The position numbers were made by a program, and so were the translations under genes. From positions 87,665 to 151,664 of the forward strand of contig JAHFSY010000003.1 of assembly GCA_023269615.1 (NCBI GenBank): DNA of 64,000 nt. The letters run 5' to 3'. Positions 10,218 through 64,000 of the stretch are shown in pieces (the first letter of the stretch is position 1; every line of letters begins with the position of its first letter). Source of the DNA: Verrucomicrobiota bacterium. GTDB lineage: Bacteria > Verrucomicrobiota > Verrucomicrobiia > JABWAM01. Below the pieces are notes generated by a model. It was not told the DNA's origin. It saw nothing but the letters and a program-made list of their open reading frames with translations, and did no database searches.

Positions 10218-11357
10218 TTATTTCGCCGCTTCCTCACGCGCCCACTGATCCGCAGCGATGATCGTATCCAGCGGGGCGTGTTCGATGGTTTTATGTGCGG
10301 AAAGAACGCGCCCCACGGTTTCCCAGATCTGCGGAAAACGAATTTCACCTTTCACAAATCGCTCGACGGCGATTTCATTGGCGGCATTAAAGACGGCGGG
10401 CGTGGTGCCTCCCCGCTCACCGGATTCGCGGGCAAGCCGCAACGCGGGAAATCGGTCGTGGTCGGGCATTTCAAATTGTAATGAGGCCATGCGGTTGAAA
10501 TCTGCCTCGGGAAGGGTGTTGGCGACGCGGTCGGGATAGGTGAGCGCAAACTGGATCGGCAGCCGCATGTTGGGTTCGCAAAGCTGGGCAAGAAGCGAGC
10601 CATCCACAAATTCCACCAGCGAATGAATGATGCTCTGGGGATGGATCACCACCTGCACCCGGTTCATCTCGATGTCGAAAAGCCAGCGCGCCTCGATCAT
10701 CTCGAGCCCCTTGTTCATCATCGTGGCCGAATCAATCGTGATCTTCCCCCCCATGTTCCAAGTGGGATGTTTGAGTGCGTCAGCGAGCGTGATCTTGTCA
10801 AAGTCGGCCTTGGGCGTTTTGCGAAAGGGGCCGCCGGACGCGGTGAGCCAGAGGTTGCGCACTTCGTGGTTGGGTTTGCCGTCGAGGCATTGCCAGATCG
10901 CGTTGTGCTCGCTGTCCACGGGCAGGATGCGCACGCCCTTGCGTTTTGCGGCGGTGGTGACGGCCTCCCCGGCCATCACGAGAATTTCCTTGGAGGCGAC
11001 CGCGATGTCCTTGCCCGCCTCGATGGCTGCGAGCGCGGGCCGGAGTCCGGCCGTTCCCACGATCGCGATGAGGACGACATCAGCCTCGGGCATCGTGGCA
11101 AGTTCGATCAACCCCTCGGGACCAGAGGAAAGGCGGGTTGCGCCATTCACCTTGGAGCGGAGTTCCGAGAGCTTGTCGGATTTGAAGACGCATGCGGCGG
11201 AAGGTTTGCAGGTGTTGATCTGCCTCGCAAATTCATCCACGTTGCCGCCGCCCGCGGCGAGCCCGACGAGCCGAAGCCGGTCCGGCAGGTCTTCAACAAC
11301 CTTGAGCGTGCTCTGACCGATCGAGCCCGTGGAGCCAAGAAGAACAACGCGTTTCAT
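10218..11357 (-). CDS. dxr: 1-deoxy-D-xylulose 5-phosphate reductoisomerase
   Basis: 'VVLLGSTGSIGQSTL' NADPH-binding N-terminus and full-length Dxr similarity (379 aa). Confidence 0.9.
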   Translation of the reverse strand: MKRVVLLGSTGSIGQSTLKVVEDLPDRLRLVGLAAGGGNVDEFARQINTCKPSAACVFKSDKLSELRSKVNGATRLSSGPEGLIELATMPEADVVLIAIVGTAGLRPALAAIEAGKDIAVASKEILVMAGEAVTTAAKRKGVRILPVDSEHNAIWQCLDGKPNHEVRNLWLTASGGPFRKTPKADFDKITLADALKHPTWNMGGKITIDSATMMNKGLEMIEARWLFDIEMNRVQVVIHPQSIIHSLVEFVDGSLLAQLCEPNMRLPIQFALTYPDRVANTLPEADFNRMASLQFEMPDHDRFPALRLARESGERGGTTPAVFNAANEIAVERFVKGEIRFPQIWETVGRVLSAHKTIEHAPLDTIIAADQWAREEAAK

Positions 11358-11498
11358 GAGATTTCATCGTAACGGATGCGAGAGGCAGTTCAAGAACGGA
11401 AGGTCTCGCGCAACCCGCGCTACGCCGTAGGCCTGGCGAGGCGAGAGGCGCAAAGGAAGAAGAGAGTTTTCACGCAGCGGTCGCTGCGTGAAAATTGC

Positions 11499-11545
11499 TG
11501 TCCTGTTAATCTTGGAAATCCAGTCAATCCTGTCAAAAAATCCGA
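11499..11545. repeat. Solo copy of the CCTGTCA/AATCCTGTCAAAAA repeat family
   Basis: 'gtcctgttaatcttggaaatccagtcaatcctgtcaaaaaatcc' shares the AATCCTGTCAAAAA(T)TCC core with the right IR of the GxxExxY cassette at 59075..59089. Confidence 0.35.
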
Positions 11546-11556
11546 TGGGATCGAAA

Positions 11557-12951
11557 TCAACTTGCGCGGAAAAAAAGCCACCACACGGCGACCAGCATGG
11601 GCAGCAGGATGGGCAGGGTGAATTTGAAGATGAAGCCGAAAAAGGAAGGAACCTTCACGCCGGCATGCTCGGCGATGCTCTTCACCATGAAATTCGGGCC
11701 GTTGCCGATGTAGGTGCAGGCGCCAAAGAAAACCGCGCCGATGCTGATCGCGGCGATGTACTTCGCGTAATTCACCAGGAGCCATGCGATTTGGATGTCG
11801 GAGTCTGTCGGGCTCGAAACATTGTGATGAGTGATGAAATCCGCAGTGCTGCTTTCCGGAGTTGGTACAAATGCGGACACGACGATGCTGGGTTCGCTCA
11901 CGATGTGACGGATGTTTTCAATCGTTTGAGGAGAAGGGCCGTAAATGCCTCCCGCCGCGCTCAGGAAATTCAGGTACGTTGGCGCGTTGTCGAGCACCGA
12001 GGAGAGAGAGCCGCTTCCCCAGTAGAAACTTGATACAGAATGGATGCCGAGGCCCCGGGCATTTGCTTCCAGCCAATCGAGCGCGGGCATCATGGTCATG
12101 AAGATTCCCGCGAACAGGATCGCCACTTCGCGCACGGGCTTCCATGAGAAATCATTTCTCTCGTAAATCTCCGGGTCGGTGAAGAATCGCGAGGCGATCA
12201 TCGCAATGATCATCATGATCTCGCGCAGAAACATGGGTGACTGGATGAAAAGCGACCACAGGATCAGCCCGATCATCGCAATGTTGGGAAGCCCCTCGAT
12301 CTTCCATGTTTTGTTTTCGGTTTCCTTTTCGCGGACGGACTCGGGCGCACGACGGAAATTCAAGGTGTCCACGATGAAAAACACGACGAGCAGCCAGGCG
12401 ACACCCACGCTCCACATGGGAAGGAGTTCGTACAATGTCCACATGAACGGGATGCCCTTGAGAAATCCGAGGTAAAGCGGCGGATCACCAATGGGCGTGA
12501 GCGCGCCGCCGACATTGCTCACGATGAAGATGAAGAAGACAACGTGGTACGAGGTGATCCGGTATTTGTTGGCCCGCAGGTAGGGGCGGATCAGCACCAT
12601 CGAGGCGCCCGTCGTGCCGATCAGGTTGGCGAGGACGGCGCCGAATCCGAGAAGCAATGTATTGAGAAGCGGCGTGGATTCACCCTTTACGCGGATGAGA
12701 ATGCCGCCCGAGACGACGAACAGGGCACCCGTGAGGCAGATGAAGCTGAAATAATCATGGGCGCTTTCCAGTGGCCGCCCCGTCTGTTTGAGAACGACAA
12801 GATAATACCCCAGCGTCAGGAGCGAGAGGACGAGTACGACCTTGGGATAATGACGTTCCCACCATTCGTGGGCGAGCAGGGGCATGATCGCGATGCAGCC
12901 GAGCAGGACCGCGAAGGGCAGGATCATCCACGGATTGACGGAGGGATGCAT
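11557..12951 (-). CDS. Ion-transporter superfamily permease (ArsB/NhaD/CitMHS-like)
   Basis: 464 aa, about 12 TM helices, with the internal duplication typical of ArsB/NhaD-fold anion/cation permeases. Confidence 0.55.
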   Translation of the reverse strand: MHPSVNPWMILPFAVLLGCIAIMPLLAHEWWERHYPKVVLVLSLLTLGYYLVVLKQTGRPLESAHDYFSFICLTGALFVVSGGILIRVKGESTPLLNTLLLGFGAVLANLIGTTGASMVLIRPYLRANKYRITSYHVVFFIFIVSNVGGALTPIGDPPLYLGFLKGIPFMWTLYELLPMWSVGVAWLLVVFFIVDTLNFRRAPESVREKETENKTWKIEGLPNIAMIGLILWSLFIQSPMFLREIMMIIAMIASRFFTDPEIYERNDFSWKPVREVAILFAGIFMTMMPALDWLEANARGLGIHSVSSFYWGSGSLSSVLDNAPTYLNFLSAAGGIYGPSPQTIENIRHIVSEPSIVVSAFVPTPESSTADFITHHNVSSPTDSDIQIAWLLVNYAKYIAAISIGAVFFGACTYIGNGPNFMVKSIAEHAGVKVPSFFGFIFKFTLPILLPMLVAVWWLFFRAS

Positions 12952-23025: not shown

Positions 23026-24141
23026 AAAAAACAAATCATTCTTCCGCAGGTCGAGTTGAACATGGAAAGCTGCACGGTCGTGCGCTGGCTGGTGAAGGCC
23101 GGCGACGCCGTGAGGGCCGAGCAGCCGATCATGGAAGTTGAAACGCAAAAAGCCGTGGTGGAGGTTCCGTCCTCCGACGCCGGTTTCATCCGCAAACTCT
23201 GCGTGAAGGAAGGAGACTCGATTGGTGAGAAAGCGTTGCTCTGCATCGTCACCGACGCGGCCGACGAGCCGTTTGATTCTGAAGCTCCGCAGGCTGTAGC
23301 CGCGGTCGTTGACCGCGGTGGATCGGAAAGACCGCGGTCAACGACCGCGGCTACAGAGGAAGGCGGCGGAATCAAGGCCGCGCCCGCTGCGCGCAAGCTT
23401 GCAAAAGATCTCGGCGTTGATCTGGGAAGCGTGAAGGGCACCGGCCCGGGCGGAAGAATCACCGTCGAGGATGTGCAGGCATTTGATCCGAAGCTCCGTG
23501 CTTCCGTGTCCTCCGTCGTTGATTTCGTATCCCGGGTTGCAGGGGATTGGAATCCGCTTCCTGCTTCCCGCATCGCCCTCAACGCCCAGATGACAAAATC
23601 GCTTGCGGAGATTCCGCAGATCCACATCGTGCGACAACTGGATGTTGCGGCGATTTCAGTCAAGGCCGAGGGCGTCACCTTCACGCACCGGCTCGTTTGT
23701 GCCGTTGCCGCGGCGCTGGTGCGTCATCCTGCGCTTCGCATGGTCCTTGATCGCGATCGCGTGAAGACGGAACCCGTGAGCGTGGCGGTGGCGATGGACA
23801 CGCCGCGCGGACTGGTGGCGCCCGCGTTGCGGAATGCTGACAAACTTTCCCTGCAGCAGGTTGCCGCGGCGACCAAGGATTTTCGTGCGCGCGCCGAGGC
23901 GGGGACGCTGAAGCGCGACGAACTGGTGAACGCGCCTTTTGCGATCACCAACCTCGGAATGCTGGGGGTGGATTTCTTCAGCGCGTTTGTGTTTCACGGG
24001 CAGACCGCGGTCCTTGCCGTGGGGCGTTCGGTCGGGGGCAAGGCATGGTTCAGCCTTGCCGTGGACCATCGCATTGTGGATGGCGCGGAGGGGGCGAGAT
24101 TCCTGGAGACGCTGCAGCAGCAAATGCAAAATGCAGAATGA
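23026..24141 (+). CDS. 2-oxoacid dehydrogenase E2 (dihydrolipoamide acyltransferase): lipoyl domain, PSBD and catalytic domain
   Basis: Lipoyl domain with lipoyl-Lys in the variant block 'EVETQKAVVEV'. PSBD 'ARKLAKDLGVDLGSVKGTGPGGRIT'. Catalytic 'DHRIVDGAEGARFL'. Confidence 0.8.
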   Translation, partial: KKQIILPQVELNMESCTVVRWLVKAGDAVRAEQPIMEVETQKAVVEVPSSDAGFIRKLCVKEGDSIGEKALLCIVTDAADEPFDSEAPQAVAAVVDRGGSERPRSTTAATEEGGGIKAAPAARKLAKDLGVDLGSVKGTGPGGRITVEDVQAFDPKLRASVSSVVDFVSRVAGDWNPLPASRIALNAQMTKSLAEIPQIHIVRQLDVAAISVKAEGVTFTHRLVCAVAAALVRHPALRMVLDRDRVKTEPVSVAVAMDTPRGLVAPALRNADKLSLQQVAAATKDFRARAEAGTLKRDELVNAPFAITNLGMLGVDFFSAFVFHGQTAVLAVGRSVGGKAWFSLAVDHRIVDGAEGARFLETLQQQMQNAE

Positions 24142-24155
24142 AGAATGCAAAATGA
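24121..24155. repeat. GAATGAA/AATGCAG repeat element, copy R3, at the E2/sucC-like junction
   Basis: 'caaatgcaaaatgcagaatgaagaatgcaaaatgag' encodes the E2 C-terminus 'QMQNAE' and the sucC-like start. Confidence 0.6.
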
Positions 24156-25363
24156 GATTACTTGAACATCAAGCGAAGAAGTTGCTGGCTCAATTTGGCC
24201 TGGCTTTCACGCGGTCGGTGGTCGTGAGCAGTCCCGAAGCCGCTGTTGATGCGGCAAAACAGCTGCAGAATTTTTCATTTTTCACTTTGCATTCTGCATT
24301 TGTTCTCAAGGCGCAGGTGCCTTTTGGTGGCCGGGGGAAGGCGGGTGCGGTTCGTTTTGCTGTGACGCCCGACGATGCGCGACGCGAGGCCGGAGAATTG
24401 CTCGCCATGAATTTGCGCGGGGTCCAGGTCACGAGCGTTTCCGTCGAGGAGAAGCTGGCGTTCACGAGGGAATTTTATGCGGGCGTGGCATGGGACACGC
24501 AGGCGAAACTGCCTGTTGCATTGCTCAGCATCGCCGGTGGTGTGGAGGTTGAGCAATCTTCGCATGAGAACCTGGCGCGACGGGCCTTTGATCCATGGAT
24601 GGGACTTTCCCCTTACATCGGGCGCGAGATGGCGGCGAGTGTCGGGCTGAAGGGAAGGACTCTCTCGGGCATGGGTGCGTTCCTTGAAAAACTCGCGCAG
24701 GCATTTCTTGCCTGTGATGCCGTGACGATGGAAATCAATCCTGTCGTGGAAACGACCGATGGCGTGCTCATCGGGCTCGATGCGCATGTGGAGATCGAGG
24801 ATGACGCCGCGTATCGGCAGAAGGAACGCCTCGCGGCCATTGGTGACATTGCGCCGACGGCGACGGGTCGCGCGCCCACGGCGCTGGAATTGGAATCGCA
24901 GAGGATCGACGCCATGGATCACCGCGGCGTGGCCGGGCGCGTGGTGGAATTTGATGGAGACCTGGCCCTTTTGATCGGCGGAGGTGGCGCGAGCCTGACC
25001 GTGTTCGACGCGGTGAGGCGCCACGGCGGCAAGCCCGCGAATTATTGCGAGGTCGGCGGCAACCCCACGGAAGAAAAGGTGGCGGCGTTGACCGCCCTGC
25101 TGCTTTCAAAAAAGGGCGTCAAAAAAATGGCTGTCATCATGAACGTGGTCAACAACACGCGTGCGGACGTGATGGCCCGGGGGGTTTTGATGGGAATTGA
25201 AAAAGCGGGACGAAAGCCGTCCGAGGCGATTTCCGTGTTTCGCATTCCCGGTTCGTGGGAACAGGAGGCGCGGGATCTCCTGGCCAAGGCGGGTGTCCGG
25301 GCGCTCGGGCGTGAAATCTCACTCGATGAGTCAGCTAGATTGGCGGTGCAACATGTTGCTTGA
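24152..25363 (+). CDS. Succinyl-CoA synthetase beta-subunit-like ATP-grasp ligase (ADP-forming acid-CoA ligase beta)
   Basis: 'MRLLEHQAKKLLAQFGL' N-terminus and 'VLKAQVPFGGRGKAG'. Carries a 12-aa in-frame insertion 'QNFSFFTLHSAF' encoded by an inverted copy of the GAATGAA/AATGCAG repeat. Confidence 0.75.
   Translation: MRLLEHQAKKLLAQFGLAFTRSVVVSSPEAAVDAAKQLQNFSFFTLHSAFVLKAQVPFGGRGKAGAVRFAVTPDDARREAGELLAMNLRGVQVTSVSVEEKLAFTREFYAGVAWDTQAKLPVALLSIAGGVEVEQSSHENLARRAFDPWMGLSPYIGREMAASVGLKGRTLSGMGAFLEKLAQAFLACDAVTMEINPVVETTDGVLIGLDAHVEIEDDAAYRQKERLAAIGDIAPTATGRAPTALELESQRIDAMDHRGVAGRVVEFDGDLALLIGGGGASLTVFDAVRRHGGKPANYCEVGGNPTEEKVAALTALLLSKKGVKKMAVIMNVVNNTRADVMARGVLMGIEKAGRKPSEAISVFRIPGSWEQEARDLLAKAGVRALGREISLDESARLAVQHVA
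24265..24308. repeat. Inverted copy (R3b) of the GAATGAA/AATGCAG repeat lying in-frame inside the sucC-like CDS
   Basis: 'cagaatttttcatttttcactttgcattctgcatttgttctc' is the reverse complement of the R3/R4-type sequence. Confidence 0.55.
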
Positions 25364-26243
25364 TCCAAAAGCGGGAATCCTCGTCCAGGGCATCACGGGC
25401 CGCGAAGCCACCGGAATGGTGGAGGACGCGCTTGCGTACGGAAGCCGGATTGTCGCCGGGGTCACGCCGGGAAAAGGAGGCCAGCAGGTTCACGGTGTGC
25501 CGGTGTTCGACACCGTGGCTGAGGCGGTCGCAAAGCATCAGCCGACGGTGAGCGTGATTTCCGTTCCCGCGCCGGCGGTTCTTGATGCGGCGCTGGAGTC
25601 GTTTGCGCACGGGATCCGGCTGTGCCTCATCATGTCGGAGCGCGTGCCACGACTCGATACGTGCAAGCTGGTGGAGGCCGCGAAACGCGTGGGATGCACG
25701 GTCATCGGGCCCAACACGCTGGGGCTCATCTGTCCGGGCGTTGCGAAGCTGGGCACGATCGGCGGGCGTCTCGACAACGTCAAACAGTCGTTCAAGTCCG
25801 GGAAGGTGGCAGTGCTTTCGCGGAGCGGGGGGATGACGACGGAGATCGCAAGTTTTCTCACAAGCCGCGGCATCGGGCAGAGCATCGCGATTGGCGTGGG
25901 AGGCGACCCGATCATCGGCGCAAATTTCACGGAGCTGATCGAGTTGCTGGAGAATGATTCCTCGACGGACGCCGTGGTGATCTACGGGGAACCGGGCGGG
26001 GCGGCGGAGGAGCAGCTGGCGGAGAGGTTGAAAAAGAAACCGAGTCGCCTGCGCATCAATGCTTTCCTGTCGGGTCGTTTCGTGGATGATCTGGAGGGAG
26101 TGCGCTTCGGCCATGCGGCGGTGATCGTGGAGGGAGGCCGCGGCTCGGTGCGGGGCAAGGCGGCGGCGCTGCGCGAAGCGGGCGTGTTTGTGGCGGATGC
26201 GTTTGATGACATCTTAAAAGGACTGCAGGCAAATGCAGAATGA
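25353..26243 (+). CDS. Succinyl-CoA synthetase alpha-subunit-like (CoA-binding, phospho-His) ligase subunit
   Basis: 'ILVQGITGREA' CoA-binding block, 'CTVIGPNTLGLI' and phospho-His block 'FGHAAVIVEGGRGS'. Confidence 0.75.
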   Translation: MLLDPKAGILVQGITGREATGMVEDALAYGSRIVAGVTPGKGGQQVHGVPVFDTVAEAVAKHQPTVSVISVPAPAVLDAALESFAHGIRLCLIMSERVPRLDTCKLVEAAKRVGCTVIGPNTLGLICPGVAKLGTIGGRLDNVKQSFKSGKVAVLSRSGGMTTEIASFLTSRGIGQSIAIGVGGDPIIGANFTELIELLENDSSTDAVVIYGEPGGAAEEQLAERLKKKPSRLRINAFLSGRFVDDLEGVRFGHAAVIVEGGRGSVRGKAAALREAGVFVADAFDDILKGLQANAE

Positions 26244-26262
26244 AGAATGAAGAATGAAAAAT
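26230..26262. repeat. GAATGAA/AATGCAG repeat, copy R4 (left inverted repeat of the 4HB cassette)
   Basis: 'caaatgcagaatgaagaatgaagaatgaaaaat' encodes the sucD-like C-terminus 'QANAE' and the 4HB start 'MKNEK'. Confidence 0.6.
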
Positions 26263-26612
26263 ATGATCTGGTTCCGAGGACCAAGGCATTCGCATTGCGA
26301 GTGATCAAAATGTATCTGTCTTTGCCAAATACCACGTTGGCCCAGGTTTTGGGAAAACAGGTGTTGCGATCAGGAACATCCGTGGGAGCAAATTATCGGG
26401 AAGCAAACCGTGGCCGATCGAAAGCGGAGTTCATATCCAAGATGGGAGATTGCCTCAAGGAACTCGACGAAACGGATTATTGGCTCGATTTGCTGGTGGA
26501 GTCCGCGCTGGTTTCAAAATCAAAAATGGAGGAATTAATTGACGAAACCCATCAACTTACCGCCATCCTTATCACCATCATCAACAAAGCCAAAAAGAAT
26601 GATGAGCAATAA
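26247..26612 (+). CDS. Four-helix-bundle protein (TIGR02436 / 23S rRNA intervening-sequence protein family)
   Basis: 121 aa. 'VLRSGTSVGANYREANRGRSKAEFISKMGDCLKELDETDYWLDLL' matches the conserved 4HB core. Flanked by inverted GAATGAA repeats. Confidence 0.75.
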   Translation: MKNEKYDLVPRTKAFALRVIKMYLSLPNTTLAQVLGKQVLRSGTSVGANYREANRGRSKAEFISKMGDCLKELDETDYWLDLLVESALVSKSKMEELIDETHQLTAILITIINKAKKNDEQ

Positions 26613-26662
26613 AATGAAGGTCAGCCATTCTTCATTTTTCACTTTTCATTCTTCATTTTCTT
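26612..26662. repeat. GAATGAA repeat, copy R5 (right inverted repeat of the 4HB cassette, opposite orientation)
   Basis: 'ttcttcatttttcacttttcattcttcatttt' is the reverse complement of the forward repeat. Confidence 0.6.
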
Positions 26663-32956: not shown

Positions 32957-33004
32957 GGAGGGGCAATGATAGGGGGGATTGACCGTGGATTCCACAGATT
33001 TTCA

Positions 33005-33075
33005 TGTAGCCGCGTTCGCCAGAACGCGGATCCCTGGGCAAAAGCAGAAACCACGCTCTGGCGAGCGTGGCTACA
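33005..33075. repeat. REP-like palindromic element (TGTAGCCGCGTTCGCCAGAACGCGGATCC arms), copy B
   Basis: The two arms are reverse complements of each other, separated by a 17-nt spacer. Located upstream of fumC. Confidence 0.55.
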
Positions 33076-34574: not shown

Positions 34575-34637
34575 TGTAGCCGCGTTCGCAAGAACGCGGA
34601 TCCGGAGGGGAACCACGCTCTGGCGAGCGCGGCTACA
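34575..34637. repeat. REP-like palindromic element, copy C
   Basis: 'tgtagccgcgttcgcaagaacgcggatcc...ccacgctctggcgagcgcggctaca', immediately downstream of the fumC stop. Confidence 0.55.
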
Positions 34638-34701
34638 TGACTGAATGCCGGATTGCGGTTGTTTTTGGCGGCTGATTTGGTTTAGCTAAAATTCTGTTTT
34701 T

Positions 34702-37907: not shown

Positions 37908-37914
37908 GAAAGAG

Positions 37915-38096
37915 GGGACAGGTGACAGGAGACAGGAGACAGGAGTCAGAATTCGGAATCCAGATGCGAGGTGTCATTGAAGTTGGACATGCTTTGATTT
38001 CAGAAGCTGGGTTTCGTAACAGCGCATCTTCATTTGACGGTTCGGAATTCATGCCACGTCACCCTTCTGTCGCCTGTCACCTGTCACCTGTCACCT
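37915..38096. repeat. Inverted-repeat element built from tandem 7-mers (GACAGGN x3.5), CCTGTCA family
   Basis: Left arm 'gacaggtgacaggagacaggagacagg' at 37915..37945. Right arm 'cctgtcacctgtcacctgtcacctgg' at 38065..38096, the reverse complement with 2 mismatches. Confidence 0.55.
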
Positions 38097-38115
38097 GGGC
38101 ACCAGGGTCCGCCCG

Positions 38116-57452: not shown

Positions 57453-58469
57453 ATGAAAACGTTGCGCGAAAAAATTCTTGGGTCGGCGCGCGGCCTGGGG
57501 TTCGATGCGGCAGGCGTTGCCCCGGCGATGGCTTCCGTGCATGGCGACCATCTGGATGAGTGGCTGGCGGATGGAAAGCATGGTGACATGAACTGGCTCG
57601 CCCGCGATCCCGCGAGGAGAAAGGATGCGCGGCAACTTTTGCCCGGGGCGAAGAGCGTGATCGTGGTGGCATTGAACTATTTTGTTCCCACACGGGATGA
57701 CATCAACGACGGAGTGGTGGCGCGTTATGCGCGGGGGAGTGATTATCACAAGGTGATGGAGCGGATGTTGAAACAACTGGCGCGTGCGGTGGAGGAGATG
57801 GGCGGCGGGGGAACTGTCGCGCGGATTGCAGTGGACACATCCGCCATTCTCGAGCGCGACCATGCGCAAAGGGCGGGCATCGCATGGGTGGGCAAAAGCA
57901 CGATGGCCCTGAGCCGTGGGTTGGGACAATGGTTCCTGCTGGGGGAGGTGATCACCACGCTGGAGCTTGAGGGAGATGAGCCCGCTGTGAATCGCTGCGG
58001 CTCATGCGTGCGTTGCATCGATGCATGTCCCACGCAGGCGATCACCGCCCCGTACCAGCTCGATGCGCGAAGGTGCATTTCATATCTCACGATCGAATCG
58101 AAGGACGACATTCCCGAGGAGTTTCGTGTGGCGGTTGGAAACCGTATTTTTGGGTGCGACGATTGCCTGGATGCATGTCCGTGGAATCGTTTTGCGAAGG
58201 AGGCCGGTGTTTTCAAAAAAACGTACCGCGAGGATCTCGCAAACCTGGACCCGCGCAAAATCCTGCGGATGGAAGAGGCGGATTTCAAAATAAAGTTTGG
58301 CGGGACGCCGATCCAGAGGCTCGGCCTTGAGCGATTACAACGGAACGCGTGCGTCGTCTTGGGGAACGTGGGCATAAAGGATGACGGGCCATTGTTGCGA
58401 GAGGTTGCGTCGGAGCATCCGAGTGAGATGGTTCGTCGCCATGCCGAATGGGCGCTGCGGGTAGGATGA
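57453..58469 (+). CDS. queG: Epoxyqueuosine reductase
   Basis: 'CGSCVRCIDACPTQAI' and 'GCDDCLDACPWNRFA' 4Fe-4S motifs plus the cobalamin-domain N-terminus. Confidence 0.85.
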   Translation: MKTLREKILGSARGLGFDAAGVAPAMASVHGDHLDEWLADGKHGDMNWLARDPARRKDARQLLPGAKSVIVVALNYFVPTRDDINDGVVARYARGSDYHKVMERMLKQLARAVEEMGGGGTVARIAVDTSAILERDHAQRAGIAWVGKSTMALSRGLGQWFLLGEVITTLELEGDEPAVNRCGSCVRCIDACPTQAITAPYQLDARRCISYLTIESKDDIPEEFRVAVGNRIFGCDDCLDACPWNRFAKEAGVFKKTYREDLANLDPRKILRMEEADFKIKFGGTPIQRLGLERLQRNACVVLGNVGIKDDGPLLREVASEHPSEMVRRHAEWALRVG

Positions 58470-58482
58470 AAGGGGAGTTTTT

Positions 58483-58568
58483 GACAGGATTTACAGGATG
58501 GACAGGATTTTTCGGAGGATGAAGCCGGATTGAACAGGATTTCAGAAAAGCCCGGGCGGGCTTTTCTG
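58483..58568. repeat. Left 85-bp inverted repeat of the GxxExxY cassette (CCTGTCA-family, ends in a GC hairpin)
   Basis: 'gacaggatttacaggatggacaggatttttcggaggatgaagccggattgaacaggatttcagaaaagcccgggcgggcttttctg'. Confidence 0.7.
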
Positions 58569-58634
58569 GGGTCGTTTTTAAGAAGGCGGAAATGGATTGC
58601 GCCTGACAGGAATCCAATATACATATGTATATGT

Positions 58635-59030
58635 ATGACAAATATGGACGATTTGACTGGAGCGATCATCGGGAGCGCGATGAAGGTGCATCGGGCGCTT
58701 GGACCCGGATTTCTTGAATCAGTTTACCAGCAGGCACTTCATCATGAATTGCGGAAGAACGGGCATCATTCGGAGAAGGAGAAGGCAATGGCAGTCTATT
58801 ACGATGATGCGGTGGTTGGCGATTTTGTAGCTGATCTGATTGTTGACCAACTGATCATTCTGGAGCTGAAGGCCGTTCAGAAACTGGCGGTCAACCATGA
58901 AGTCCAGCTGGTCAACTATTTGAAGGCCACTGGATTGGATATCGGTCTCGTCTTCAATTTCGGAGGCGGCAGTCTTGAGTTTAAAAGGAAATTTCGAACA
59001 CCGCAGAAAAGCCCGTCCGGGCTTTTCTGA
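58635..59030 (+). CDS. GxxExxY protein (TIGR04256; PD-(D/E)XK nuclease-like)
   Basis: 'LTGAIIGSAMKVHRALGPGFLESVYQQAL...VDQLIILELKAV' has the GxxExxY motif and PD-(D/E)XK-like D...E-K blocks. Its C-terminus is encoded by the right IR. Confidence 0.7.
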   Translation: MTNMDDLTGAIIGSAMKVHRALGPGFLESVYQQALHHELRKNGHHSEKEKAMAVYYDDAVVGDFVADLIVDQLIILELKAVQKLAVNHEVQLVNYLKATGLDIGLVFNFGGGSLEFKRKFRTPQKSPSGLF

Positions 59031-59089
59031 AATCCTGTCAATCCGGCTTCATCCTCCGAAAAATCCTGTCCATCCTGTAAATCCTGTCA
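59005..59089. repeat. Right 85-bp inverted repeat of the GxxExxY cassette (about 97 percent identical to the reverse complement of the left repeat)
   Basis: 'cagaaaagcccgtccgggcttttctgaaatcctgtcaatccggcttcatcctccgaaaaatcctgtccatcctgtaaatcctgtc'. Confidence 0.7.
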
Positions 59090-59100
59090 AAAATTCCCCG

Positions 59101-62100
59101 TCACCTCGCCGAACGGACCAGGACCTTCTTCAAAAAGCGCGCGGTGTGGGAGGCTTTGACCCTGGCCACCTCCTCGGGTGTGCCTGCGGCCACGACGCGG
59201 CCTCCGCCTTCTCCGCCTTCGGGGCCAAGGTCCACCACGTAATCGGCTTCGGCGATCAGGTCCATGTTGTGCTCGATCACGATCGCTGTATGCCCTCCAT
59301 CCACCAGCTGGTGCAGCACGCCGATCAATTTCTCGACATCCGCAAAATGCAATCCAATCGTCGGCTCCTCCAGCACGTAAAGATTTCCCTTCGCAGCAGG
59401 CCCGCGTCCACGCATCAGCTCGCTCACCAGTTTCATCCGTTGCGCCTCGCCACCCGAGAGGGTGGGGCTGCTCTGGCCAAGCGCAAGATAGCCGAGCCCG
59501 GTATCCGCGAGAAGCTGGAGCGGTTGCGCGATGCGACGGTCGAACGAGAAAAATTCCACAGCCTCCCCGGCCGACATTTCAAGCACCTGCGCGATATTAC
59601 GGTCACGATACAGAATTTCACGAGTCTCAGTCCCGAAACGCGCCCCGCCGCATGTTTCGCATGGCACATAGGCGTCCGGCATGAAACTCATCGCCAGTTT
59701 CACGCGCCCCTGCCCCTCGCACGTGTCGCAGCGCCCGCCCGGGACGTTGAATGAAAAACGGCTTGCCGTGTAGCCGCGGATCCTGGCGGCGGGCGTGGAG
59801 GCGAAGAGCCTCCGGATTTCATCCCAGATGCCGAGGTAGGTGGCCGGGCAGGAACGGGGCGTCTTGCCAATGGGAGCCTGGTCCACCTCGTAGGCGGAAG
59901 CGATGAGGCTCGAGCCCTTGAGAATTTTCCGCCATGGTGACGATGGATGCCTGAGCCCGTGCAGCAACGTCCCTCGCACCAGTGAGGATTTGCCCGCCCC
60001 GCTTACGCCCGTGACCAGCGTCAACCGTCCCGACGGAAACCGGACACGAACCTTTTTCAAGTTGTGGAGGGTGGCTCCCGCAACTTCGAACCATTCAGCC
60101 GTCTTCAGATCGCGTCGTTTTCCACGCAGGGGATGCCGCATCGGATTGGACAGGAACTCAAGCGTCCTTGAATGTGAAATCTCAAATTTCAAATTTGAAA
60201 TTCTGGGCCTCCCAGCCCAGACGACCTGTCCACCCTGTTTGCCCGCGCCGGGGCCGAGGTCAATGATCCAATCGGCGCGGCGCATCGTTTCTTCATCATG
60301 CTCGACCACGAGAAGGGAATTGCCCCGGGCCTTGAGACGGTCGAGGACGCGGAGCAGCCGTTCGTTGTCCCGGCTGTGCAGGCCGATCGTCGGCTCGTCA
60401 AGCACGTAGAGGACACCACGCAGGTTGGAACCGAGTTGCGAAGCAAGACGGATGCGCTGGGCCTCGCCACCCGAGAGCGTGACGGCGGCGCGGCCGAGGC
60501 CGAGGTAATCGAGGCCGACCTCGCCCATGAAGCGCAGGCGCTCCACGATTTGCGGGACGATGTCACGCGCAAGTTCCCGCTCGCGTCCTGAAAGGCGAAG
60601 CCGTGAAAACCATTCGCATGCGGCGCGTGAGCTCATGGCGTTGAGCTCCGGGGGCGCGAGATCACCGACGCGAACATGGAGCGAGTCGGTTTTCAACCGC
60701 GCCCCGTGACAGCGCTCGCAGGGGTGGGCGTCCTCATCGGATGTCCGCCGCTCGATGCGCAGGTCGCGTTCCGTTTCCTCCTCTCCATCGAGGTCTTCAA
60801 GGGCGTCTTTGCCCCAGGTCACGCCGTAGCCGAAACAATCCGGACACCAGCCGGCTGGGCTGTTGAATGAAAAATCGCGGGGGTCGAGCGGCGAAAACGA
60901 CCGTGCACAGGACGGGCATGTGCGCAAAGTGCTGATGACCCGTTCGCTGTCACCGCGGGAATCGGAAAGGACGATCATGCCACGGCCCGCGCGAAGCGCA
61001 TCGCGGATCCGAGAGGCGTTGCGGGTGTTTTTTTCAAAAAGCCCATAATCGAGCTCAATCGTGTGCTCGACATAGCGCGCCAGTTTTTTTCCTCCGAGCA
61101 GGCGCGGGGTTTCGATGAAGCGACCATCCACGCGCAGGCGACCGATGCCGTGGGCGGAAGCCCATTGAATGACTTCATCGTGAAACCCTTTTCGTCCACG
61201 CACCACCGGGGCGAGGATGTGGAGCGGCTGGCGGCGCAGGGCACTGAGGATCTGGTTCACCGCGGCATCCTCGGTTTGTTCGCGGATGGGCAGCTTGCAG
61301 CGCGGGCAATGTTGAACGCCGACCTTCGCGTAGAGGAGACGGATGAAGTGGTAGGCTTCCGTGATCGTGGCCACCGTGGACTTCCAGCCGCCGCGCGTGA
61401 CGCGCTGCTCGATGGCGACGGTGGGCGGGATGCCCTCGACGCGATCCATGTCGGGGCGCGGCATCTGCTCGACGTACTGGCGCGCGTAGGTGGACATGCA
61501 GTCGAGGAAGCGCCGCTGTCCCTCGGCAAAGACGAGATCGAAGGCAAGCGTGGATTTGCCGCTGCCGCTGAGGCCCGTGATGACGACAAACTGGTCGCGG
61601 GGGATTGAGATCGAGAGATTTTTGAGATTGTGTTCGCGAGCATTTGTAATGCGAATCTCTCCGCTATCCGCAATTGTAGGGCAACGGGCCCCGTTGCCTC
61701 TCCGTCGGACGGCAAGCGGGCCGCTTGCCCTACATAAGAGCGGACGAAGATATTTCCCGGTGTGCGAGGAAGGATGTTCGGCGATGGATTCGGGGGTGCC
61801 GCAGGCGACCACCTCGCCGCCGCGGTCGCCGGCCTCGGGGCCGAGGTCAACCAGCCAGTCGGCGCATTTCACGAGCTCCATGTTGTGCTCGATGACGAGC
61901 GCGGTGTGGCCCTGGTCCACGAGCTGCTGGAGGACATCCACGAGGCGGCGGACGTCATCGAAATGCAGTCCCGTGGTGGGTTCGTCAAAGATGAGAAGCG
62001 CCCGTTGCGGGGTTTTGCGCGTGAGCGATTCGGCGAGAAATCCGCAGAGTTTCAATCGTTGCGCCTCGCCGCCGGAGAGCGTGTTGATGGGCTGCCCCAG

Positions 62101-64000
62101 TCGCAGGTAATCCAATCCCACGCGATCGAGCAGCTGCAAAGTGGCGACCGCCTGCCGTTGCAGGCGGGCCCATGTCTTTCGTTCCGAGTCGTTGTTGCCG
62201 TGGGAGGGGAGCGATTGCAGAAGGCGCGTGGCGTCGGCAATCGTGGAAGCAAGAAGATCGGCCACGTTTTTTCCGCCGAGTCGGACCTTGAGAATTTCGT
62301 CGCGGAAACGCCTCCCGTGACAATCGGGGCATTCGATCTGGACGTCCGGCAAAAATTGCATCTCCACCTTTTCGTATCCAAGCCCGCCGCATCGCGCGCA
62401 ACGGCCTTCGCCTGCATTGAACGAAAAGCTGCCGGCGGTGAAACCGTTCCGGCGGCTCTCATCGAGGGCGGCTAGCAGCTCGCGAATCGAATCCCATGCG
62501 CCGACGTACACGGCGGGATTGGAGCGCGACGTACGCCCGAGCGGGGCTTGGTCCACAAGGATGACTTCGCCCAGCGCTTCGTGGCCTGCAACGCTTTCGC
62601 AACGTCCGGGTTCGGACGAGGATTTGCCGCGCAGCGCCTGCAGTTTTTCGTAAAGGACGCGGTGCACAAGCGTGGACTTGCCGCTGCCGGAGACACCGGT
62701 GACGCAGACGAATCTCCCGAGGGGAATATCCACGGAGACGCGTTTGAGATTGTTTTCCGCAGCTCCCCGGATCGAAAGCCTCGGCGTTGTTGCATTCACC
62801 GGGCGTGTCTTTCCCGGGAGAGGGATTTTCTTATGGCCCGAAAGATAATCGAGCGTCAGGCTTTGAGATTTGAGATGTGAGATCGTCGGCTGGCCCTGCC
62901 AGACGACCCTGCCGCCCAGCTCGCCGGCGCCCGGGCCAAGGTCCACGAGATGGTCGGCGGCCCGGATGACGGAGGGTTCGTGCTCCACGACGACCAGCGT
63001 GTTGCCCCGGTCGCGCAGGGCGTGGAGCACGCGGACGAGGCTGTCCACGTCGCGCGGATGGAGCCCCACGCTGGGCTCGTCGAGGATGAAGAGCGTGTTC
63101 ACCATGGCTGAGCCGAGGCAGGTGGTAAGGTTGACGCGCTGGACTTCACCGCCCGAGAGAGTGCGTGCCGACCGGTCGAGCGTGAGGTAATCGAGCCCGA
63201 CATCGCCGAGCAGCCGAAGGCGTGAAATGATTTCGCGAATGACGAGGGCGCAGGGATCTCCCCGGGGGGTGACAAACGCTTCCACGGTGGAGCGCAAGTC
63301 GCGGATGGACATGCCGTAGAGGGCGCCGATCGTTTTTCCCGCGAGACGGTAGTTGAGGGTTTCGGGCTGGAATCGCGTCCCCCCGCATGTCGCGCAGGTG
63401 CGATAAGTGCGATAACGCGAGAGCAGTACACGCATGTGCATCTTGTAGCTTTTGGATTCGAGCCAGCGAAAATAGCCGCGCACGCCGTACCATGGGCCAT
63501 AGCCGGTGTCACCGGGATCCCCGGGGTCGCCTTCCATCACCCATGTGTGGTGTTGCGCGGGGAGGCGGTTGAAGGGAGTATCCGGATTGACGCGCCGACG
63601 CCTGCACCACTTGAGAAGGTCATCCTGGCATTCCGCCGAGACGCCGCCCTGCCACGGCTTGATCACGCCCCCGCGCAATGAGAGGGAGCGGTTTGGAATC
63701 ACGAGCGCCTCGTCAATGTCGATGGTGCGGCCGAAGCCCCGGCATTTCGGACACGCACCGACGGGGCTGTTGAACGAAAAGAGCGAAGGCGTGGGTTCGG
63801 AAAAAGAACGGTTGCATGATGCGCAATGACGTCCGCGCGAAAACGGATACGACTTGCGGCTGTTGAGCGTGATGACCCAGAGATGTCCTTTGCCTGCACG
63901 AAAGGCGGTTTCGGCGGCCTCGATGAACCGGCCGCGCTGCGACGTGGAAAGCGTGATGCGGTCCTGGATGACGGGCAACAGTGAGGGTGGAGATTTTACC
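59101..64000 (-). CDS. uvrA: Tandem-fused double UvrA (excinuclease ABC subunit A-A): two complete UvrA units in one ORF; the 5' end lies beyond the window
   Basis: Three Walker A sites ('VTGVSGSGKSTLV', 'ITGLSGSGKSTLAFD', 'VTGVSGAGKSSL'), four LSGGE signatures and multiple CxxC zinc modules. Unit 1 ends '...SHTGKYLRPLL' at the canonical UvrA C-terminus. Unit 2 begins 'IRITNAREHNLKN' at the canonical N-terminus. There is no stop codon or start codon between them. Confidence 0.85.
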   Translation of the reverse strand, partial: VKSPPSLLPVIQDRITLSTSQRGRFIEAAETAFRAGKGHLWVITLNSRKSYPFSRGRHCASCNRSFSEPTPSLFSFNSPVGACPKCRGFGRTIDIDEALVIPNRSLSLRGGVIKPWQGGVSAECQDDLLKWCRRRRVNPDTPFNRLPAQHHTWVMEGDPGDPGDTGYGPWYGVRGYFRWLESKSYKMHMRVLLSRYRTYRTCATCGGTRFQPETLNYRLAGKTIGALYGMSIRDLRSTVEAFVTPRGDPCALVIREIISRLRLLGDVGLDYLTLDRSARTLSGGEVQRVNLTTCLGSAMVNTLFILDEPSVGLHPRDVDSLVRVLHALRDRGNTLVVVEHEPSVIRAADHLVDLGPGAGELGGRVVWQGQPTISHLKSQSLTLDYLSGHKKIPLPGKTRPVNATTPRLSIRGAAENNLKRVSVDIPLGRFVCVTGVSGSGKSTLVHRVLYEKLQALRGKSSSEPGRCESVAGHEALGEVILVDQAPLGRTSRSNPAVYVGAWDSIRELLAALDESRRNGFTAGSFSFNAGEGRCARCGGLGYEKVEMQFLPDVQIECPDCHGRRFRDEILKVRLGGKNVADLLASTIADATRLLQSLPSHGNNDSERKTWARLQRQAVATLQLLDRVGLDYLRLGQPINTLSGGEAQRLKLCGFLAESLTRKTPQRALLIFDEPTTGLHFDDVRRLVDVLQQLVDQGHTALVIEHNMELVKCADWLVDLGPEAGDRGGEVVACGTPESIAEHPSSHTGKYLRPLLCRASGPLAVRRRGNGARCPTIADSGEIRITNAREHNLKNLSISIPRDQFVVITGLSGSGKSTLAFDLVFAEGQRRFLDCMSTYARQYVEQMPRPDMDRVEGIPPTVAIEQRVTRGGWKSTVATITEAYHFIRLLYAKVGVQHCPRCKLPIREQTEDAAVNQILSALRRQPLHILAPVVRGRKGFHDEVIQWASAHGIGRLRVDGRFIETPRLLGGKKLARYVEHTIELDYGLFEKNTRNASRIRDALRAGRGMIVLSDSRGDSERVISTLRTCPSCARSFSPLDPRDFSFNSPAGWCPDCFGYGVTWGKDALEDLDGEEETERDLRIERRTSDEDAHPCERCHGARLKTDSLHVRVGDLAPPELNAMSSRAACEWFSRLRLSGRERELARDIVPQIVERLRFMGEVGLDYLGLGRAAVTLSGGEAQRIRLASQLGSNLRGVLYVLDEPTIGLHSRDNERLLRVLDRLKARGNSLLVVEHDEETMRRADWIIDLGPGAGKQGGQVVWAGRPRISNLKFEISHSRTLEFLSNPMRHPLRGKRRDLKTAEWFEVAGATLHNLKKVRVRFPSGRLTLVTGVSGAGKSSLVRGTLLHGLRHPSSPWRKILKGSSLIASAYEVDQAPIGKTPRSCPATYLGIWDEIRRLFASTPAARIRGYTASRFSFNVPGGRCDTCEGQGRVKLAMSFMPDAYVPCETCGGARFGTETREILYRDRNIAQVLEMSAGEAVEFFSFDRRIAQPLQLLADTGLGYLALGQSSPTLSGGEAQRMKLVSELMRGRGPAAKGNLYVLEEPTIGLHFADVEKLIGVLHQLVDGGHTAIVIEHNMDLIAEADYVVDLGPEGGEGGGRVVAAGTPEEVARVKASHTARFLKKVLVRSAR
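61675..61734. repeat. REP-like inverted doublet (two 19-bp palindromes GGCAACGGGCCCCGTTGCC and GGCAAGCGGGCCGCTTGCC inside TGTAGGG...CCCTACA) encoding the UvrA-UvrA linker
   Basis: Verified by hand against the ORF translation: this segment encodes 'CRASGPLAVRRRGNGARCPT' between the two UvrA units. Confidence 0.7.

Follow-up and report, generated by a model that had tools for sequence, protein, structure and literature searches.

A family of single-gene cassettes that recurs across phyla has been identified in the current analysis. Each member carries a gene for a GxxExxY protein of about 125 amino acids; the gene is flanked by arrays of GACAG(G/A)AT units (8-9 nt) in inverted orientation, each with a T-run at its outer end. 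One member is encoded in the 64,000-nucleotide stretch of Verrucomicrobiota DNA considered here, which is referred to as the window. This element looks like a long-lived selfish gene cassette that is new to the literature. We infer mobility for the cassette and nuclease activity for its protein. The explanation that we prefer, with a probability of roughly 0.4, is a hairpin-bounded nuclease cassette similar to the REPIN/RAYT systems, in which the gene is nested in its own dispersed repeat and the nuclease keeps and spreads the element.

The association of gene and arms has been assessed in an unbiased sample of 80 metagenome loci picked by protein similarity only, 69 of which have sufficient flanks. 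With a cut-off of at least 15 on the inverted-repeat score, a flank-to-flank inverted repeat is present in 51 of the 69 loci (74%) and at none of 203 shifted positions within the same loci that served as controls. Two or more inward-facing ACARRAT units are found on both sides of the gene in 42 of the 69 (61%), again against 0 of the 203 controls. Nearly all of the inverted flanks are ACAGGAT or ACAGAAT arrays. The arms are made up of GACAGGAT or GACAGAAT units and rarer variants, usually three units bordered externally by a T-run, and the gene starts a few to about 40 nt beyond the arm. A typical arm has about 35 nt and is 70-95% matched; among the long arms of the sample, those of the window copy (100 nt, 97%) are the best matched.

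In six of 58 cassettes the gene reads through the right arm and ends at the terminal GTC-TAA. In the public calls many homologues are wrongly extended at the N- or C-terminus by translated arms, with DRINRIYRII, ILHNPVHPVSK, NPVNPVNPV and NSVNSV as examples (Table 1), and these extensions indirectly confirm the association of the gene with the arms. In a neighbour-joining tree of the proteins all the 22 cassettes with ACAGAAT arms form one clade, and ACAGGAT arms are found everywhere else. The arm type tracks the protein clade exactly, and gene and arms are inherited together.

The original prediction for this DNA had described one gene with inverted repeats of 85 bp. A discrete cassette of one gene and two inverted arms is indeed present, and the arms are longer than had been claimed, with 101 and 100 nt that are about 97% complementary. 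The BLAST alignment of the two arms extends over about 97 nt with one 1-nt indel and two substitutions; a third substitution lies outside this alignment, just within the end of the 101-nt arm. Within 58483-58568 and 59005-59089 there are exactly two differences, the number that had been reported: an extra A, and a G against an A in the hairpin loop. From outside to inside each arm comprises GGGGA(G/A), a T-run, six GGA-containing units with a 9-nt period that form a GACAGGATn array, and a 26-nt GC hairpin with the sequence CAGAAAAGCCCG(GG/TC)CGGGCTTTTCTG, so that the predicted sub-repeats and closing hairpins are both found. The two hairpins score as terminator-like, and they repeat each other in direct orientation as well. 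In the window a 27-nt stretch of the arm is confined to the two arms, against an expectation of 0 from shuffled sequences, and ACAGGATTT is counted 6 times against an expectation of 0.39.

The GxxExxY gene is the sole gene inside, as predicted; its final 8-10 codons and the stop overlap the hairpin part of the right arm, in place of the 12 codons claimed earlier. Public gene calls start at an alternative ATG (58644), which gives a protein of 128 aa. The AT-rich inner spacer preceding the gene is possibly the promoter and ribosome-binding region. A sigma-70 promoter in the arm was suggested by the terminal TTGACA; it was rejected, since there is no -10 element at the right spacing and a sigma-70 consensus scan of the arm and spacer region gave no promoter.

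The left arm begins 2 nt after the stop codon of queG (58467-58469) and the right arm ends 1 nt short of that of the minus-strand uvrA-like gene (59101-59103). The arms reach almost to the stop codons of both neighbours and the cassette therefore constitutes the entire intergenic region between queG and the giant uvrA-like gene, where it had been placed before. At 1,826 aa in the public call, the uvrA-like gene is very large; it runs past the end of the window and matches ABC-ATPase, UvrA interaction and DNA-binding domains. The organism has a second, independent assembly in ENA (L123), which matches with 100% identity across 8 kb, and an assembly artefact is thereby ruled out. The relatives of its QueG mark the genome as a MAG of the Verrucomicrobiota.

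Table 1. Positions in the window and sampled loci of the features described in the text
Feature	Position or loci	Strand	Description
Left arm	58472..58572	+	GGGGAG, T-run 58478-58482, unit array, GC hairpin 58543-58568
Left-arm array, six GGA-containing units	58483-58542	+	GACAGGATT TACAGGATG GACAGGATT TTTCGGAGGATGAAGCCGGATTGA ACAGGATTT
Inner spacer	58573..58634	+	AT-rich; one further unit-like GACAGGAAT
GxxExxY / PDDEXK_3 gene	58635..59030	+	131 aa; TIGR04256 136.9 bits (cut-off 35), PF13366 132.1 bits (cut-off 22)
Right arm, reverse complement of left arm	59000..59099	-	Hairpin 59004-59029, ATCCTGT-unit array 59030-59088, A-run 59089-59093, TTCCCC
uvrA-like gene	59101-64000	-	Continues past the end of the window
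Solo diverged arm	11467..11540	-	TTTTTTGACAGGATTGACTGGATTTCCAAGATTAACAGGACAGCAA then GC hairpin TTTTCACGCAGCGACCGCTGCGTGAAAA; no partner arm, no gene
Four-helix-bundle (PF05635) cassette	26230-26657		Gene 26247-26612; inverted AGAATGA-unit arrays 26230-26262 and 26626-26657
AGAATGA-type arms at sucC start	24123-24155, 24270-24302		First in the 5' leader, second inside the coding region
Gene-less palindrome	37913-38097		Arms are GACAGGAG/GACAGGTG 8-mer arrays; 113-125 nt between arms
Separate REP-like palindromic family	23294-23356, 33002-33034, 34575-34640		TGTAGCCGCG…CGCGGCTACA; at least three places
cdsA-dxr cassettes	L144, L146, L148, L150, L152, L153, L163, L164, L167, L170, L173, L180, L188
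JAOZVK01 palindrome	L002, L030, L040, L069, L073, L091		GGCTACACGTATAGTATTGGACA…TTTGACAGGATTTACAGGATT…GGGTAGCC
Homologues with false arm-derived extensions	P0002, P0004, P0010, P0016-P0018, P0020, P0021, P0049, P0114

The protein encoded by the cassette matches TIGR04256 and PF13366 far above the cut-offs, and PDDEXK_3 is its sole Pfam match. Six residues, E25, D64, E74, K76, Q88 and Y92, are invariant across 70 sequences and correspond to the PD-(D/E)XK motifs, that is, E in helix 1, D and ExK, together with QxxxY. The AlphaFold2 model of the protein (pLDDT 91) has its best match in the PDB with Cas4 SSO0001 (4ic1, E = 9e-4), followed by MGME1, lambda exonuclease and the AddAB nuclease; a search of the PDB with the sequence itself gave no homologue. 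These motifs and the modelled fold characterise the protein as a minimal PD-(D/E)XK nuclease of the RecB/Cas4 branch with predicted activity, and the PD-(D/E)XK-like nature anticipated for it is borne out. PADLOC gave no defence-system match for the protein and PHROGs none either. Exact-sequence look-ups of the 131-aa and 128-aa forms found no match; the nearest homologue shares 71% identity and there is no recent second copy of the cassette. The gene has a GC3 of 0.56 against 0.67-0.77 in host genes and is compositionally atypical for the host.

The cassettes occupy short gaps that are often within conserved operons. In Nibricoccus sp. (GCA_047600805.1; L121, 2237-6393) the order is rpmI-rplT-[GxxExxY]-pheS-[four-helix-bundle gene]-pheT. 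This single conserved operon houses two different small cassettes, and the four-helix-bundle gene has inverted units of its own on either side, of the AAGCGA type. Another site has the order mreC-[unannotated ORF]-PBP2-[GxxExxY]-rodA. The arrangement cdsA-[GxxExxY]-dxr is found in 13 of the 80 sampled loci and is kept across about 40% divergence of Dxr.

At syntenic loci the identity of the gene is about that of the flanks, and the gene has a dN/dS of 0.04-0.26 with dS up to about 1.7, which indicates strong purifying selection. Three of the cdsA-dxr loci (L144, L146 and L152) have an identical left arm of 31 nt despite a synonymous divergence of 0.56-1.35, and the left and the right arms each retain their own spacer letters among syntenic loci. 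The syntenic cassettes have been inherited vertically and have resided for long under selection. The two genes of one pair share 91% identity and have unrelated flanks. The closest relative by QueG (76% identity; L124, 5581-5650) has the same start of the element after queG, with one ACAGGAT unit before the start of the CAGAAAAGCC hairpin. This contig ends 69 nt past queG inside the one-unit version of the element, the assembly having probably been broken by the repeat. The queG/uvrA synteny is lost outside this closest relative, and the 61-65% QueG relatives that were compared differ in synteny; no vacant queG-uvrA site came to light among these relatives.

No consistent target-site duplication was found among 33 cassettes, and the window cassette is not bordered by direct repeats either, its flanks being ...GATGAAA (left) and GTCACCT... 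(right). The mobile or selfish element proposed in the original prediction is supported in so far as the same package is found at unrelated sites (rplT-pheS, pbp2-rodA and cdsA-dxr); signs of current mobility are lacking, the nearest homologue being at 71% and a target-site duplication being absent. The same prediction had named a conserved regulatory structure as the alternative. It had been tied to the lack of any other repeat copy together with the identical cassette in distant taxa, and related arms do occur elsewhere; the same gene and arms at unrelated sites fit an inserted selfish element better than a local regulatory structure. The label non-autonomous, also applied to the cassette at that time, is a guess.

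Further copies of the repeat, which had been proposed as a check, are widespread. A scan of one genome per species with the pattern TTTGACAGGATTNACNGGAT, which has 18 fixed bases, revealed the arm motif at at least 120 genome loci where about 17 matches are expected by chance. The flanks of the motif hold further units, which shows that the matches are not due to chance. The matches listed include Verrucomicrobiota, Planctomycetota, Bacteroidota, Acidobacteriota, Desulfobacterota, Chloroflexota and other phyla as well as the archaeal Methanosarcinales and Methanoperedens. Among these matches an inverted partner lies within 3.5 kb in 74 of 137 occurrences, and the partnered occurrences are mostly compact gene-less palindromes of 49-250 nt, often with a central GC hairpin. 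A GxxExxY gene is present in 5 of the 136 motif-selected loci listed (120 genome and 16 viral); exactly one such gene lies between the arms in L043, L059 and L067, and L116 has a fragmentary match directly after the arm. None of the 16 motif matches in viral contigs has a GxxExxY gene. The gene-less hairpins and solo arms far outnumber the gene-bearing copies.

A long ORF terminates at the motif in 26% of the occurrences among the matches listed; for random positions the figure is 8%. The TGA within TTTGACAGG serves as the stop codon in 10 cases. The Bacteroidales MAG JAOZVK01 contains at least seven copies of a palindrome of 110-125 nt with the motif (Table 1), which carry 2-3 ACAGGAT units and lie at sites with unrelated flanks. 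This palindrome looks like a MITE-like derivative that has multiplied recently. In six other loci (L088, L104, L031, L033, L046 and L081) ACAGGAT hairpins are nested in palindromes of other short units (CACGAAGG, CACGGGGGA, GCAGGGAC), and this nesting suggests insertion into the centres of pre-existing palindromes.

The 64 kb read from the genome of the window cassette contain one solo arm and one related GACAGGAG hairpin. The solo arm lies in the gap that separates dxr, which starts at 11357, from the stop of a CitMHS transporter gene at 11557. As 13 of the 80 sampled loci hold a full cassette directly upstream of dxr, this arm is probably the remnant of a cassette that has decayed at the dxr site. 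The 8-mers of the gene-less palindrome in the window (Table 1) are relatives of the GACAGGAT unit. The separate REP-like family is also listed in the table.

A second type of cassette in the same window contains a PF05635 gene (four-helix bundle, 23S_rRNA_IVP; 121 aa, 72 bits) that is bracketed by inverted AGAATGA-unit arrays. It is wedged between sucD and an E1-beta-like gene, with the stop codon of sucD inside the left array, and the GC3 of the gene is 0.53 against about 0.75 in the neighbours. The presence of this cassette in the same window points to a general layout in which a small ORF lies between inverted arrays of short units, with its own unit for each family. The four-helix-bundle cassettes share the architecture without a nuclease, from which it follows that such arms need not serve a nuclease. 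A tblastn search with one four-helix-bundle query, of the limited sensitivity of a single query, gave no further copies in the sampled loci. AGAATGA-type arms also bracket the start of sucC, and the right one is translated in frame (…AAKQLQNFSFFTLHSAFVLKAQVPFGGRGK…); the repeat array is apparently tolerated as an insertion in this conserved enzyme.

According to the preferred explanation, the protein would specifically recognise the sequence of the unit arrays in its own arms and the nuclease would act on these arrays to maintain and spread the element. The spread could take place by break-induced copying (homing) of the gene into gene-less hairpins, or the activity could serve the dispersal and upkeep of the hairpin population. 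The logic would be that of a RAYT gene within its own REP/REPIN repeats, with another enzyme. The element would do little harm to the host, as it occupies intergenic gaps and its termini supply stop codons; in the window copy each arm may provide the convergent host gene, queG or uvrA, with a terminator-like hairpin. Deletion between the two directly repeated 26-nt hairpins would yield a gene-less palindrome as found elsewhere. The stable, vertically inherited behaviour of the syntenic cassettes speaks against this explanation, being unusual for a homing endonuclease. RAYTs are likewise stable and vertically inherited. The missing recent second copy of the window cassette, the missing target-site duplication and the four-helix-bundle cassettes, whose arms enclose no nuclease, also count against it.

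Some of these observations could be accounted for at the level of RNA, by an element similar to the rRNA intervening sequences whose arms pair as a double-stranded stem that is cut by RNase III, with excision or insulation of the cassette transcript and a protein function unrelated to the arms. In the fold of the 641-nt transcript the stem extends over about 100 bp (dG -327 kcal/mol, z = -15.6), many cassettes lie inside operons where read-through is certain, and the other ORF family of intervening sequences, PF05635, has the same architecture in the window; the 23S rRNA intervening sequences have this layout and are cut by RNase III (PMC4990558). The need for a stem alone leaves unexplained the conservation of the unit across phyla and the tracking of the protein clade by the arm type. 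The mismatches of the arms have no excess of G:U (35) over A:C (38), and the spacer letters of the compact hairpins are complementary in 29 of 63 cases where 23 are expected, which is not beyond chance; the constraint on the arms consequently looks like site recognition and not like RNA pairing. Typical arms, moreover, are short and imperfectly matched, and in the window copy a terminator hairpin between each array and the gene makes full read-through doubtful. We regard the RNA-level explanation as unlikely. Improbable also is a stable host module that is no longer or never was mobile, in which the arrays are operators for control of the protein's own gene or its neighbours, or recognition sites for a nuclease function of use to the host, and the distribution reflects old insertions followed by domestication. 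The purifying selection, the agreement of gene and flank identity at syntenic loci, the long retention of the cdsA-dxr cassette, the conserved arms of orthologues and the lack of recent duplicates of the window copy are all in its favour. It leaves unexplained why hairpins and solo arms with no gene are so much in excess and why one palindrome is present in several copies amid unrelated flanks, and likewise the nesting in other palindromes, the atypical composition and the many unrelated gaps that are occupied; the PADLOC result lends it no support.

The cassette could further be considered as a mobile insertion cassette or MITE whose ACAGGAT arrays are recognised by an unlinked transposase, which moves it in trans with the nuclease as cargo. 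In the manner of some transposon ends, its terminal inverted repeats are composed of several short sub-repeats, and gene-less derivatives are many. We consider this quite improbable: in the motif-selected genome loci examined no pair of matching arms encloses a transposase gene, a target-site duplication is absent, and the cargo is always of the same family with the arm type following its phylogeny, which is not expected of exchangeable cargo. The arms have also been considered as a small RNA or 3'-UTR sponge titrating CsrA/RsmA through repeated A(N)GGA motifs and a terminator, since six GGA motifs per arm lie on the sense strand of the upstream gene ahead of the terminator hairpin and there is a weak match to RsmY. 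This match has 11.3 bits against a gathering score of 57 (E = 5), the whole protein clade with ACAGAAT units is without GGA, the GGA motifs of the compact forms face the complementary arm, and the motif is present in archaea and Bacteroidota, which are not known to have CsrA. The sponge was rejected on the sub-threshold RsmY match, the ACAGAAT clade and the archaeal occurrences, and is hardly tenable.

In the literature we found no description of arms made of ACAGRAT arrays, of their co-variation with the protein or of the population of gene-less hairpins. The GxxExxY protein family is already known; the arms, the co-variation and the hairpin population appear to be new. Both families, PF13366 and the four-helix-bundle "23S rRNA IVS protein", are very large, and the GxxExxY proteins are now tied to a conserved DNA motif that co-varies with them, which poses the concrete question whether the protein binds or cuts ACAGGAT arrays. 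A single explanation is suggested for the intervening-sequence ORFs, for the small genes wedged in operons of Verrucomicrobiota, Planctomycetota and others, and for widespread intergenic palindromes. As a tool, a minimal Cas4-like nuclease that acts sequence-specifically at a known 7-9-nt site would also be of use. In practical terms the arrays break assemblies and make gene callers add false termini such as DRINRIYRI and NPVNPV.

Judged by the defining characters of each, the cassette is not an intervening sequence, a RAYT, a MITE or mobile insertion cassette (MIC), or an integron cassette. The integron gene cassettes, which have one attC at the 3' end and lie in an array next to intI, differ from it in that the present element has repeats on both sides and stands alone between housekeeping genes with no integrase nearby. 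With MITEs and MICs it shares the short length, the terminal inverted repeats, the presence or absence of a passenger gene and the intergenic dispersal. It differs from them in being without a target-site duplication and in having a passenger that is always of the same family and co-varies with the arms; a transposase-bearing parent element was not seen among the motif-selected genome loci examined.

In the 23S rRNA intervening sequences of Coxiella and Leptospira a small ORF is enclosed by terminal inverted repeats, RNase III cuts these sequences, and the PF05635 four-helix bundle is their ORF type, S23p (PMC4990558). According to the original prediction, GxxExxY genes have been noted in similar contexts as well. 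The cassette resembles them in its terminal inverted repeats, which form a stem around one ORF of about 120 aa, in its length of a few hundred nucleotides and in the selfish origin that has been proposed for them. In contrast to them, which are inserted in a helix of the 23S rRNA gene, it lies between protein genes (queG and uvrA) and its arms are unit arrays conserved across phyla; no Rfam match at the gathering score is present in the window, and 20 other sampled GxxExxY loci also show no rRNA. The free-standing PD-(D/E)XK homing endonucleases such as I-Ssp6803I are comparable as small nuclease genes inside the sequence that they might recognise, for which break-induced spread is plausible. 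The putative target of the cassette differs in being a repeated palindrome and not a unique conserved gene site, and the cassettes differ in their long residence under purifying selection.

The REPIN/RAYT systems ("REPtrons") are similar in that a single enzyme gene is bracketed by inverted short repeats, and the repeat is also scattered in intergenic regions as gene-less hairpin doublets. Like the RAYT genes, the cassette gene is flanked by an inverted repeat that is also dispersed as gene-less hairpins, and vertical inheritance, purifying selection and a repeat type that matches the enzyme lineage are further points of likeness. The enzyme of the cassette is a RecB/Cas4-type PD-(D/E)XK nuclease and not an HUH/Y1 (IS200/IS605-like) transposase as in RAYTs, and its arms are arrays of 8-9-nt units and not one imperfect palindrome. 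Also in contrast to REPIN/RAYT, the unit sequence is essentially shared across many phyla including archaea, and some genomes have more than one gene-bearing copy. If a wider proposal is made, it would be that the GxxExxY genes and ACAGRAT-array hairpins of bacteria and archaea represent a new cross-phylum class of elements, the PD-(D/E)XK counterpart of REPIN/RAYT, whose minimal Cas4/RecB-like nuclease would recognise the short unit arrays and propagate or maintain the hairpins, with the four-helix-bundle cassettes as a sister system that has units of its own. We hold this to be possible though doubtful; if true, the intervening-sequence ORFs of 23S rRNA would be explained as members of the same class of hairpin-nesting elements.
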